Assembly (NCBI GenBank): GCA_013239625.1
Contig: MU053652.1
Location: forward strand, 8,269,303-8,333,026
From: Lama guanicoe
Taxonomy: Eukaryota
DNA: 63,724 bases
Reading direction: 5' to 3'
Of this stretch, positions 8,953-50,698 are shown piece by piece (positions within the stretch are counted from its first letter, which is position 1; every line of letters begins with the position of its first letter). Below the pieces are notes generated by a model that searched no databases, was not told where the DNA came from, and was given only the letters and a program-made list of their open reading frames with translations. The translations under genes and the position numbers were made by a program.

Positions 8953-9309
8953 ATGCACAACGGTGGTGCTTTCCCATCCGCGTTACTTAGGGGTTTCCTT
9001 CAGACTTACGTGAATCGTAGCGAACTGGAGTTCAGAACTCTCAGGATGAGGAGGTCATTCGGTAAAGGGCACAAGAAAGTTGGCACTATGTGCTGCTTAC
9101 TGTCCGTGAGCAGGTGTGCACCATGTGATTGCTTTGAAGAACTGGATGAAAAGAATTCACCACCCCCTAAACAGAGCCGTTTCCTCAATAGGTCCAACCC
9201 GCTCAGTTACTGCATTGTGTTTCCTCACTAAAAAAAAGACAGGACCTTGGAAGGACAATGAAAGAGGAAGCTTAGTAATTATTTACCTGTTCTGCTAGGT
9301 GCCAAGACA

Positions 9310-9463
9310 CCTATGAATCACAGTAAGTGGGTGAACAAACACTGGCCACTCAGGAACTTGGCTTCCGTACAAAGCCCAGTAATCATGGGACAATAGGAGG
9401 AGCAGGGACTGTTTCTAACAGGGGAGAAAAGTCTACTCCCAGCAGAAAGACTTTCCCATCACA

Positions 9464-9514
<51 letters not shown>

Positions 9515-9664
9515 TGAATCACAGTAAGTGGGTGAACAAACACTGGCCGCTCAGGAACTTGGCTTCCGTACAAAGCCCAGTAACCATGGGACAATAGGAG
9601 GGAGCAGGGACTGTTTCTAACTGGGGAGAAAAGTCTACTCCCAGCAGAAAGACTTTCCCATCAC

Positions 9665-9709
<45 letters not shown>
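9310..9709. repeat. Tandem duplication of a ~200-bp unit, each copy ending in a long (CA)n
   Basis: CCTATGAATCACAGTAAGTGGG...CTTTCCCATCACAAC(CA)n starts at 9310 and again at 9511; about 5 differences between copies. Confidence 0.97.
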
Positions 9710-9711
<2 letters not shown>

Positions 9712-10699
9712 AAGACTGTTTATGTTTGAAGGAACTGTTACGCACAGGAGGTGAAAGCATCCTTTATAAAGGAATACTTAAAAACTATTTGAAGATGGAG
9801 GTTGCAACTGAATTCGAGTTTCTCAGTCTTTCTGTAGCAATCCAAATTATGATATGCTAATTGAGTAAATATAGATTGATGTTAACAAATGGATAAAGGA
9901 CTATTACTCCCCCTACACTCACAATGTTTATGTGTTTTGGCCTCTGCTCCAACATCTTTCCAAGTTTTTATTCAAGGAGCACAGGTTAGCAGAGGATGTT
10001 TTGCAGTTGAAACTGATAAACATCTGGGAATCCAGGTGCTCGACATTTCAATTCTCTGTAGCAGAAGCGTTCCTTCATCATATGAAACTGTCACATTCTT
10101 ATTTTGCCTAATGATACCATCATTATCATATTCACTTGAGTGACAAAATGCCAGATTCATGCTCATCAATTTTCTGCTGTGTCTCTCCAAATCAAAGAGC
10201 TTTCTCTTTTTAAATCTATCAAATTAGCACGGTGGGCTCAGTCAACAGAGAGTGGTGTTTCAGTAGTGATATTCAAAAATTATGCGCCATTTTTGTCCGT
10301 CTTTGTAATTCATGCATTAAATTTAGTACTGCCAGGATTTAGCTATTTAAGCTTGAATTGTTCTGAATTTAATTATGTGTATCAAGGCAAATATTTAAGT
10401 GTGAAAATTTCAATCACAAGAAATTAGAAAAAAGTAAACACAATTTAGAGAGGAGGGATAGGAAGAAATATTATATCAATCTGCTAACCTATATGATTCT
10501 AATTTTTTGACTCAATTAAAAGAATACATTTGCTTTTCATGTATTTAAAAATGGTGCTTTGTCTAAACACACATTAAGCAAGCATCGTTAGTAGAAATTA
10601 CATGAAAATAGTTATGGGAGTTGAAAGGTCTGTAGTAACTTAATAAGTGATTTGAGGAGACAATACAGAAAGCAAAAAGGAAAGAAAGATACCTGAGTT

Positions 10700-16398: not shown

Positions 16399-17560
16399 AG
16401 AGAAGAGGAATAGGACCAGGATATGAAGAGCAGGCTGGTGAGTGGGGAACTACAAACCTGCACTGAACACTGATGAAGGAAAACCCGAGCAACTAGAGAG
16501 AGAGTTAGGATTGCAGTGGGCACAGGACATGAGGGAGGGATGTAGAGATGAGGGAGCAAGTTTCAAAAGCCAACGCTGCCCACTTCATAACTCCACACAG
16601 AACTCTCAGTGAGTTCTTAGGAGACATTATTCCTTGAGACACTTTAAGCTAGAATATGTGCTACTGGAAACACATACTAGCATGTGTATGATGCCCTTCT
16701 GATTTGAACTGCGTCTTTTATTTTCTTAGGGTTAGAAAAAGAGGTTAATATTAGAAACAAAAAAGAGAAATCTCACAGTAATCAATGCGAGGGGAGCAAG
16801 GACACTACACCAAAAGGGACCTTGGGTGAGCAATCTCCTTGCATCCACAGGAGACCCTGAGAGACTCAAGTGGGACTCGAGAGGGAGTTTCAGACTGGCG
16901 GTCACAACACTGATGAATCTCACTGGTGATTTTCTGTGATAAATGGAAATGATAAATATATCACATGGACAAGAAATCCAAACAAGGTCTAGACAAGATG
17001 AAGTGTGACTAGGTTCTGAAAGAGTTGGTTTTGTGCTGGAGAAATATAGCAGGCTTAGGCTAGACTTCTAAATCTGATTGTGCAATGGTGTACAAAAGGA
17101 TGCTCAAGGATTATGTTTTAAATTAAACCTTGCTTCTCTTACCTGGCTATATAAGCCATGGATTATTTTTTCGAATATGTTGCAAATTATGATTTATGAG
17201 GGAACTAGCTAAGAACAACAGTTTGTTCCTGTTTTTCTCCTCGGGTATTTATTGAATCTGTTCACTTATCGATTTGTCTAACAAATATTATTAAACTCCT
17301 CCTACCTTTGGTGCTAAAATATATTATGATGGTCCCAGGAGTGAAGAACTTGAGAAAAAGCATTAGAGAACCCATAGGAGGAGCATCTCTTTCTTGCTTT
17401 CCTAAAAAAGGGAGAAGCCAAGAGTATTCCACTTTATTTTCCTCTAGAGTGACTTTACAACTGTGGCAATATGATGCAATATAAGAATGGAGTTGACAGA
17501 TGAAAAAGAAATAAAGAAGAATGAAAAAAAGTGTCTTAGGATCTGCTTATAAGTATTTTT

Positions 17561-17714
17561 TAACATTTTTTATTGATTTATAATCATTTTACAATGTTGT
17601 GTCAAATTCCAGTGTAGAGCACAATTTTTCAGTCATACATGAACATGTATATATTCATTGTCACATTTTTTTTCTCTGTGAGCTACCATAAGATCTTATG
17701 TATACTTCCCTGTG
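17561..17714 (-). mobile_element. Young, heavily 5'-truncated LINE-1 (camelid-type 3' UTR) with perfect TSD
   Basis: TAACATTTTTTATTGATTTATAATCATTTTACAATGTTGTGTCAAATTCCAGTGTAGAGCAC...CCCTGTG flanked by CTGCTTATAAGTATTTTT at 17543-17560 and 17715-17732; TTTT/AA endonuclease site. Confidence 0.92.
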
Positions 17715-26023: not shown

Positions 26024-26403
26024 GTAATCTAAAACATTCTGCATATATTACGAACATAATCCATAATCCAAAAGAAGCAAGCTTGAGGAAGAGACTAAAA
26101 TGGTCAGGAAATAAATGCTGATGAAGATGAAGAGAGGAGAGTGTTGGAATGATGAAGAGAATTAAATTTAATTCTTTCAATTAAATAAGGTAGATTTAAA
26201 CTGAATGGAAACTAAAAATAAAACTCAGAGAGACCCAGGAAAGCAGGATAAGTCTCAGGGTCACTGTGTGGCTGGACTGGGGGCTGTGGACAGGGTTGTA
26301 GAATCTCAGGTCTGCTCAGGCTGAGTCAGAAGACCTGATCAGGTTTCTTGGTCCACACCAGACTATTGCCATAGTGGTCAGCTTTTTTGGATGGTGGACT
26401 TTT

Positions 26404-26740
26404 TTTTAATATATATTTTTATTGAAGTATAGTCAGTTTACGATGCTGTGTCAATTTCTGGTGTGCAGCATAATGCCTCAGTCATACATGAACATACATA
26501 TATTCATTTTCATATTCTTCTTCACCATACGTTACTACAAGACACTGAATATAGTTCCCCATGCTATACAGTACGAATTTGTTGTTTATTGGATTTTGTG
26601 AGAATCCTCCCATATTTCGAGACACTCTGCCATAATTCAGCAGGTGTTCTGTGTGATTCAATAGGTTTATAGATGTAATTTTTGGTGTATTTGTGGGAGA
26701 GGGTGAGCTGTGAGCCTCTGCACTCCACCATCTTGGCCTC
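26404..26740 (-). mobile_element. Internally deleted mini-LINE-1: ~150 bp of the 5' end fused to ~190 bp of the 3' end, with TSD
   Basis: Minus strand begins GAGGCCAAGATGGTGGAG (L1 5' end with YY1-like site), joins at 26589/26590 to ATAAACAAC...GTACTGTATAGCA...CTATACTTCAATAAAAA-polyA; flanks TGGATGGTGGACTTTT (26388-26403) and TGGATAATGGACTCTT (26741-26756). Confidence 0.8.
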
Positions 26741-27399
26741 TGGATAATGGACTCTTGGAGAATCTGATGAAGGTTATATTCTGTCTTTCTATGGAAAAGC
26801 ATACTTGCACATAAATATGAATTCAAGAAGTTCACAAATTCCTACACTAAATAAGGGAAAACTCTTAAGTTTTGCAGACAAGTAGAACACCCCACCTATC
26901 AACCTATTTGTTTGTACTTTGACCAGAAGTCCTCACTAAGTAAATCAGTGTAGTTCTTGTCAGTCGAGTTTTGGAAAAGCTGAATTTTACTCTCCCCCCT
27001 CCCCAGTACTACCCTGTTCAGCTGCTCTACACTTACTGCTAAAAAGAAAACACAGTGGTTGTTCTCCTAGCATATATTTGCCTTTTTTTGTGTGAAACAT
27101 GTACATGGGAAAGCTTCAATTCACAATAGTTCAACTTAATTTCTCTCTTGTAATCAAATACTTTTGGAAAGCTCTCCATATGACTGAAATACTGTTGTAT
27201 TTTCCAAGAGGAAAAGAAGCATCTTGAATTTTGTCAATAATAGGTTACTATAGATTTTTCTCACTCAAAAGAGAATGACTTGGTGTGATACTGAGAAGTC
27301 ATTGTCTTTATTAAATCCCTCCCTTTCCAGCCACATCTGACACAGCAGTGGGCTGGTGTTGATCTGAACTTCTCTCCCTATGATACAGTCATCTCGCCC

Positions 27400-35623: not shown

Positions 35624-35729
35624 ATAAAGTGTTTTGTATTTTTCAAGTAATTTCACATGTATTGTGTAATTTTTAGTAAGTTTACCTTTTCTTAAATTGA
35701 GATATAATTCACATGCTATAATGTTCACT

Positions 35730-36274
35730 TTTTAAAATTGAAGTATAGTTGATTTACAATATTGTGTTAGTTTTAGGTGTACAGCAAAGTGATTCAGTTG
35801 TATATATATTTTTTCAGATTATTTTCCACTATAGGTTATTACATGATATTTAATATAGTTCCCTGTGCTATACAGTACATCCTTGAAGCTTATCTGTGTC
35901 ATATGTAGTAGTGTGTATCCATGAATCTCATACTCTTATTTTAGCACTCACCATTCCTTTTCCCCTTTGGTGACCATAAGTTTGTTTTCTCTATCTAGGT
36001 CTGTTTCTCTTTTGTAAATAAACTCATTTGTATTATTTTTTAGATTCTATATGTAAGTGGTATCATACAGTATTCATCTTTCTCTGCCTGGCTTCACTAA
36101 ATATAATATTCTCTCGGTCTATCCATGTTGCTGCAAATGGCAGTATTTCATTCTTTTTTTATGGCTGGTTAATTTTTTGCTGTATCTATACCACATCTTC
36201 TTTATCTGTTCATCTATTATGGATGCTTAAGTTGTTTCCATGTCTTGGTTATTGTAACTAGTGGTGCTATAGAC
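35730..36274 (-). mobile_element. Younger LINE-1 3' end nested in the L1MB, with degenerate TSD
   Basis: TTGAAGTATAGTTGATTTACAATATTGTGTTAG...TACAGCAAAGTGATTCAG; flanks CTATAATGTTCACT (35716-35729) and CTATAATTTCACT (36275-36287). Confidence 0.85.
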
Positions 36275-38386: not shown

Positions 38387-38689
38387 TAAAAAATTATTTA
38401 CTAATTTTTAAAATTGAAGTATAGCTGATTTACAATGTTGCATTAGTTTCAGATGTACAGCAAAGTGAATCAGTTATACGTGTGTGTGTGTGTGTGTGTG
38501 TGTGTATACATATTTTCTTCTTCAGATTCTTTTCCTTTATAGTTTATTATAAGATATTGAATGTAGTTCCTTGTGCTATACAGTAGGGATGCTGTTGTTT
38601 ATCTATTTTATATATAGTAGTGTGTATATGTTAATCCTAAACTCCTGATTTATCCTTCCTCCTCCTTCTTTCCCCTCTGGTAACCATAG
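38387..38689 (-). mobile_element. LINE-1 3' end with internal (TG)n and 19-bp TSD
   Basis: TTGAAGTATAGCTGATTTACAATGTTG...CCCCTCTGGTAACCATA; flanks TTGAGACTTCTACATTTTT (38368-38386) and TTGAGACTTTTACATTTTT (38690-38708). Confidence 0.9.
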
Positions 38690-49920: not shown

Positions 49921-50698
49921 TCTTTTTTTTAATTAAGTATGTTCAGTTTGCTATGTTGTGTTAATTTCCGATGTACAGCACAGTGATTCACTTATACATA
50001 TATATACATATATTCCTTGTCATATTCTTTTTCATTATAGGCTGTTACAAGATACTGAATATAGTTCCCTCTGCTATACAGTAGGACCCTGTTGTTCATC
50101 TATTTTATATATAGTAGTTAGTATCTGCAGATCTCGAACTCCCAATTTATCCCTCCCCACCGTCTTCTCCTCCTGATAACCGTAAGTTTGTTTTCTATGT
50201 CTGTTAATCTGTCTTTCTTTCATAAATAAGTTCATTTGTGTCATTTTTTAAGATTCCACAGATAAATGATATCATATGGTATTTTTCTTTCTCTTTCTAG
50301 TGTACTTCACTTTGTATGGCAATCTTCAGGTCCATCCATGTTGCTACAAATGTCAATATTTTATTCCTTTTTATGGCTGAGTAGTATTCTATTGTATATA
50401 TATACCATAGCTTCCTTATCTAGTCATCTGTCGATGGACATTTAGGTTGCTTCCATGTCTTGGCTATTGTAAATAGTGCTGCTATGAACATTGGGGTGTA
50501 TGTAACTTTTCAAATTAGTTTCCTCCAGATATATGCTCAGGAGTGGGATTGCTAGATCATAGGATAACTCTGTTTTTAGTTTTTTAAGGAATCTCTATAC
50601 TGTTTTTCATAATGGCTGCACCAAACTACATTCCCACCAATAGTGTAGGAGGGTTCCCTTTTCTCCACACCCTCTCCAGCATTTATCGTTTGTGAACT
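49921..50698 (-). mobile_element. LINE-1 3' UTR and ORF2 C-terminus, 5'-truncated
   Basis: T-tract then GATGTACAGCACAGTGATTCA...GTTCCCTCTGCTATACAGTAGGACC...TGCTATGAACATTGGGGTG...ACATTCCCACCAA..GTGTAGGAGGGTTCCCTTTTCTCCACACCCTCTCCAGCATTT. Confidence 0.92.

Follow-up and report, generated by a model that had tools for sequence, protein, structure and literature searches.

Spliced copies of LINE-1 (L1) are established in human, where spliced integrated retrotransposed elements (SpIREs) make up ~1.8% of full-length L1s and have been called dead ends (Larson et al. 2018, PMC5860796). One form, SpIRE97/622, has 116 copies in the human reference (PMC5860796), and one SpIRE has regained activity via a host promoter (PMC13174262). 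Spliced L1 RNAs known as SpORF2 run from a donor in the 5' untranslated region (UTR) to positions far downstream (97 to 1837 and 290 to 1920; PMC2896524). Other long interspersed elements (LINEs) have given rise to bipartite derivatives with no open reading frame (ORF), such as R2 SIDE (PMC3414825), Persaeus, which derives from CR1 (PMC6740152), and RIME, the Vingi derivatives, Bov-A, and RTESINE (PMC5786205). Here we describe a unit of ~340 nucleotides (nt) in a 63,724-nt stretch of the Lama guanicoe genome (assembly GCA_013239625.1, contig MU053652.1, positions 8,269,303 to 8,333,026; this whole stretch is called the window, and all coordinates are window positions). The unit is confirmed to be a decayed retrotransposed relic that is made of two L1-type ends only, with both ORFs gone. 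We assign a probability of roughly 0.7 to the reading that an L1 RNA was spliced from its 5' UTR to its 3' UTR and was then retrotransposed in trans many times.

The unit lies on the minus strand and runs from 26740 to ~26404, with an L1-type 5' end joined to an L1-type 3' end. In the order of the element strand, its parts are as follows.

26741..26756, minus strand: upstream copy of the target-site duplication (TSD), 16 nt, 13/16 identical to 26388-26403
26590..26740, minus strand: 5' part, 151 nt, which we take to be the start of an L1-type 5' UTR; a many-copy repeat in 4/4 sequencing runs
26589..26590, minus strand: junction, bridged at other loci by records X1-7, X15-21, and X16-29
26421..26589, minus strand: 3' part, the end of an L1-type 3' UTR, 69 to 80% identical to 5 other copies in the window; it begins just past an AG in ordinary copies
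26404..26423, minus strand: AATAAA signal (26423-26418) and a short, decayed A-rich tail, both read directly
26388..26403, minus strand: downstream copy of the TSD, 16 nt, starting with an A run

An earlier reading of the window from its letters alone (the sequence-only reading) had described both L1 ends inside one 16-bp TSD with 13/16 identity, and a 5'-type part of ~150 bp followed by the A-tailed final ~190 bp of an L1 3' UTR. The sequence reads as claimed, with parts of 151 nt and ~190 nt. A match of 13/16 was reached by 9 of 3000 random window segments compared with the same downstream zone, and the A run at the start of the downstream TSD is what is expected at L1 endonuclease sites. 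The TSD, the AATAAA signal, and the A-rich tail are hallmarks of target-primed reverse transcription. At 26590, the element strand has A in the window copy and G in most other copies, which is probably the result of CpG decay.

Within the window there is no second copy of the 5' part, which is a many-copy repeat in all four of the sequencing runs that we compared (X1, X13, X15, and X16). This part, 26590-26740, is presumably an L1 5' terminus, and a motif at about 26728-26736 is, we assume, YY1-like. An 86-residue frame across the unit has no homologue that we could find, and no ORF1 is kept in the ~340 nt. We also considered SINEs (short interspersed elements), a class defined by RNA polymerase III transcription and a head derived from tRNA, 7SL, or 5S RNA, and which in camelids include the named simple SINE vic-1 (PMC3531059). 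No tRNA was found within the window, so the unit lacks a small-RNA head of the SINE type, and the sole match in an Rfam scan has an E value of 0.37 and 19.6 bits, compared with a gathering score of 95.

In order to look for the same junction elsewhere, public contigs from the four runs were aligned to the window at 80% likeness. Among the 32 records listed (there are 61,070 others), 3 bridge 26589/26590 and extend 31 letters or more to either side of it.

X1-7: 26554-26719, 26 substitutions and 8 gap letters, at single-copy depth
X15-21: 26551-26709, 23 substitutions and 7 gap letters
X16-29: 26447-26620, 30 substitutions and 3 gap letters

Three further records (X15-22, X16-30, and X16-31) extend only 11 letters beyond the joint and were excluded from this count. 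The bridging records are 80 to 82% alike to the window copy (18 to 20% unlike), whereas flanks in the same runs are 0 to 5% unlike. Over 26300-26428 and 26690-26870, X1 and X13 show no difference from the window at its own locus (records 1, 8, 9, and 16), and this locus is 4 to 11 letters off in X15 and X16 (records 24 and 32). The bridging records are therefore too unlike the window copy to come from its own locus. They are other loci, which could be three or fewer across the runs, and the junction, whose uniqueness had been put up for checking, is not unique. This bears on the explanation that the unit is a single deletion or chimeric insertion and that the other junction contigs are DNA-level duplicates or alignment artefacts. 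It would fit the small number of listed records that pass the bridging rule and the fact that their TSDs are not readable, but it is at odds with the divergence of these records, with the single-copy depth of both flanks of the window copy, and with the lack of any indel at 26579-26590 at the 4% listing level, which argues against mis-extended ordinary copies. We consider this explanation very improbable.

The majority letter at 26590 lies inside the alignment of 37, 24, 9, and 8 contigs in the four runs, although some of the 37 may be unjoined relatives in a loose alignment. On the nearer side of 26590, the alignments extend at most 29 letters in all four runs. In a simulation with random sequence and a k=31 graph, this reach was 29 letters for a parental overlap of 0 to 1 letter and 25 letters for an overlap of 5, which suggests that the joint has a 0- to 1-letter overlap. 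Summed depth at 26590 relative to flank depth is 154 to 224 in X1 and 106 to 178 in X13, although depth is no copy number and is inflated by overlapping contigs. By a rough and biased measure, depth at 26590 is 41 to 58% of that at 26633 across the four runs. These data suggest a rough copy number of tens to about 200 for the joined element. Single contigs in X1 skip 26569-26673, 26607-26686, and 26618-26680 and may represent copies that lost more sequence around the joint.

On the 3' side of the joint, 26402-26589 matches five other L1-type 3' ends in the window. Four of these extend as far as the joint; their match ends at 26589 or slightly inside it, and the letters directly upstream are AG. 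The numbers of contigs clipped exactly at 26589 are 163 (X1), 131 (X13), 66 (X15), and 59 (X16), and their consensus runs on with the same AG-ending sequence (these figures come from the 24 loose-end rows listed out of 1297). Thus, the removed part ends in AG in 4/4 window copies and in the clipped consensus; the sequence-only reading had noted the AG in other L1 copies of the window (38596-38607 and 50092-50103). The 3' sequence that it quoted differs trivially from the copy at 50092-50103, which reads ATGAAC rather than ATAAAC. Both the window copy near 50100 and the clipped consensus of X1 contain a perfect branch-like heptamer, TACTAAC, whose branch A sits at -19 with no further AG before the break, and a looser yUnAy motif is found at -19 to -29 in 4/4 window copies; these counts come without a chance control.

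Two L1-type 3' ends elsewhere on the minus strand have features of their own. The one at 17556-17674 is short and 5' truncated, has a perfect TSD of ~17 nt, and looks younger than the studied element. The one at 38393-38688 is also 5' truncated; its apparent TSD is ~19 nt long, and its 3' part contains a CA repeat that has expanded.

The primary paper on half-L1 (HAL1) elements is reportedly that of Bao and Jurka in 2010. HAL1 is a non-autonomous member of the L1 clade that has been shortened internally and keeps ORF1 (PMC5786205). The unit resembles it in being internally shortened and of the L1 clade and is unlike it in keeping no coding sequence. An already shortened, HAL1-like parent with the same two ends could have yielded the unit by splicing or deletion, and it would suit both the existence of HAL1 families in the L1 clade (PMC5786205) and a 5' end that is not linked to ORF2 or to a full-length element. 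Against such a parent, the 3' part matches ordinary L1-type 3' ends that extend far upstream (35729-36270 with 49924-50485), and nothing that we found points to a HAL1 in this genome. The Repbase names in a camelid locus table include L1-1_Vpa, L1-2_Vpa, and L1-3_Vpa and, as far as the table was consulted, no camelid-named HAL1 (PMC6726744). We regard this origin as quite improbable.

On the 5' side of the joint, one record from X15 (record 23) is an unjoined 5' relative. It aligns with 26738-26591 and is followed by 225 letters unlike the element, so that the likeness ends at the joint. Since this record aligns to 26591, the joint retains two 5'-side letters after AAAAT, and the parental overlap is at most 1 letter. 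Together, these leave without support a deletion through AAAAT microhomology, which the sequence-only reading had kept as an alternative and which we reject; what it had read as the two ends in one TSD and the AG at the break does stand, and the junction is present at more than one locus. Record 23 also carries an L1-type 3' end 34 letters upstream of the unjoined 5' copy, at ~seven times flank depth. This head-to-tail L1 arrangement may be duplicated or expressed.

The sequence-only reading had proposed a GTAGG donor-like motif at about the 5' junction of related L1s; a GT was not observed directly there. The donor side was also searched at the protein level. When the frame across the 5' part was compared with 1.84 billion protein representatives, 5 matched. 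Two of these (P0004 and P0007) belong to unrelated repeat proteins and were set aside, and three (P0005, P0006, and P0008) are unnamed peptides from Logan contigs. The P0006 cluster (P0006 and P0009 to P0011, which counts as one observation) aligns in frame and has Gly-Arg at the joint-spanning codon. With G as the last kept base, as in most copies, and Gly in P0006, the first removed base must be G. By this codon argument, P0006 would be compatible with a GT donor, with the second removed base left free. The 5' part of the window copy is short by about 5 to 7 nt near 26618, as seen both in relatives with insertions at 26617-26621 and in a 3-residue gap relative to P0006. A profile search recovered just these 3 known peptides among 587 candidates, searches with two other frames gave no candidate, and the Atlas gave no usable match. 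The P0006 locus was not found in viral contigs. A motif for the parent 5' end had 0 matches in viral contigs and in a first metagenome scan and none in plasmids or phages; its one match in a second metagenome scan and its one match in genome contigs are both bacterial chance matches.

Several observations weigh against splicing followed by repeated retrotransposition. The pyrimidine fraction ahead of the AG is only 0.44 to 0.56, by which measure the acceptor is weak; the sequence-only reading had already remarked that it lacks a polypyrimidine tract. AG is common anyway in this purine-rich strand, and the perfect branch heptamer is missing from the clipped consensus in 3/4 runs (X13, X15, and X16). 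On the donor side, the donor letters are absent from the 24 loose-end rows listed, none of which is on that side. P0006 is only 40% identical to the element and differs from it immediately ahead of the joint (Met in place of Ser), P0005 stops before the joint, and P0008 has no Gly-Arg there. Finally, among the records listed, none spans the window's own junction without differences.

Some of these points would favor a founder that arose without splicing, in which a reverse-transcriptase template jump or a DNA deletion joined two L1 ends and the product was then re-transcribed from its kept 5' end and amplified as a non-autonomous family. A single founder would explain why the junction is fixed at several loci, the weak acceptor and the donor letters missing from the listed rows are as it would have them, and template jumps and recombination have been proposed for the SIDEs of R2 and CR1 (PMC3414825; PMC6740152). 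However, the break lies exactly after AG and has a branch-like motif upstream of it, the overlap of no more than 1 letter leaves little microhomology for a jump, and the P0006 hint is compatible with a donor that starts with G. We consider a founder of this kind unlikely.

Under the splicing reading, the spliceosome would have joined, in the transcript of an old L1 subfamily, a donor that lies ~151 nt from the start of the 5' UTR to an AG ~190 nt before the 3' end. This would remove both ORFs and leave a polyadenylated RNA of ~340 nt that encodes nothing. L1 proteins from other copies would then have reverse transcribed this RNA by target-primed reverse transcription, with insertion at tens to perhaps 200 places, of which the window copy, since decayed, would be one. 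Its integration would have preceded the split of two related animal groups.

Compared with SpIREs, the unit is likewise a retrocopy of L1 that has lost a fixed internal segment between splice-like boundaries and has a TSD and a tail, and it is likewise recurrent. However, in the SpIRE classes described, the splice lies inside the 5' UTR or leads from it into ORF1, and ORF2 is kept, whereas the unit is without both ORFs. With an acceptor ~190 nt from the 3' end, it falls in neither class. Joined forms account for ~40 to 60% of depth over the 5' end, a rough and biased figure, whereas SpIREs are ~1.8% of full-length L1s. The unit shares with SpORF2 RNAs a 5' UTR donor and a distant acceptor, but SpORF2 retains ORF2 and the acceptor of the unit lies past both ORFs.

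The anatomy of SIDEs also fits. Like them, the unit appears to combine just the two termini of a LINE, 5' and 3', lacks an ORF, and exists in several copies that were presumably mobilized in trans. It is multi-copy and dispersed, as SIDEs are, with the number being rough. Known SIDEs come from R2, CR1, Ingi, Vingi, and RTE, whereas the unit is of L1 type, and splicing is not among the SIDE origins proposed in the portions consulted of three accounts (PMC3414825, PMC6740152, and PMC5786205). If splicing did produce the unit, we lean toward its copies having been made recurrently from full-length L1s, as in SpIREs, and give somewhat less credence to inserted copies having been re-transcribed, which would make it a true L1 SIDE. 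An RNA of 340 nt is nearly always copied whole, so recurrent splicing alone could leave many complete copies, and copy number is therefore no proof of self-propagation. Taken overall, a self-propagating, ORF-less L1 SIDE that was born by splicing, was transcribed from its kept 5' end, and reached about a hundred copies despite cis preference is possible but doubtful.

The main text of a camelid repeat survey (PMC8605555), in the parts available, does not mention such an element. The camelid locus table has a 191-nt L1-2_Vpa 3' fragment with no adjacent 5' match, which is uninformative (PMC6726744). We found no description of a UTR-to-UTR L1 family in the open literature; Repbase, Dfam, and subscription journals lay outside this search, and such a family may be catalogued there.

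The same insertion is present at the upstream flank in X15 and X16 (record 24, 11/235 letters different; record 32, 4/160), and these two runs have three flank differences in common. X15 and X16 are RNA runs, but the flanks are covered too, which shows the presence of the insertion and not its transcription. The insertion is in both diverged groups of runs and is therefore older than their separation. Should the groups be New and Old World camelids, which split ~16 million years ago by the date cited in PMC6726744, the insertion would be more than ~16 million years old. Among the rows listed (there are 64 more), the window copy departs from the majority letter at 13/151 positions of the 5' part and 12/174 of the 3' part. 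The copies look old and dead, and we claim no effect on the host.

In the window, 121 stop-free frames gave 2 Pfam matches, both below the cut-off, and no host gene was identified; for the most part, these frames are the longest among the 392 that have 52 amino acids or more. A tandem duplication of ~205 bp with 97% identity lies at 9307-9712.

The preference of L1 proteins for their own RNA (cis preference) has been put forward in print as the reason that no L1 derivative with two ends and no genes had been seen (PMC3414825), and two papers state that a gene-less L1 parasite of this kind had not been seen before. The unit may be such a parasite. It is a real, multi-copy type of L1 retrocopy that lacks both ORFs and was probably made by splicing, and a fixed UTR-to-UTR form at many loci is at the least a new L1 splice class that removes both ORFs. 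If the copies share mutations of their own, this would be a natural case of L1 producing an RNA polymerase II mini-parasite of itself. A true L1 SIDE would define the minimal 5' sequence for transcription and would give a direct test of cis preference.
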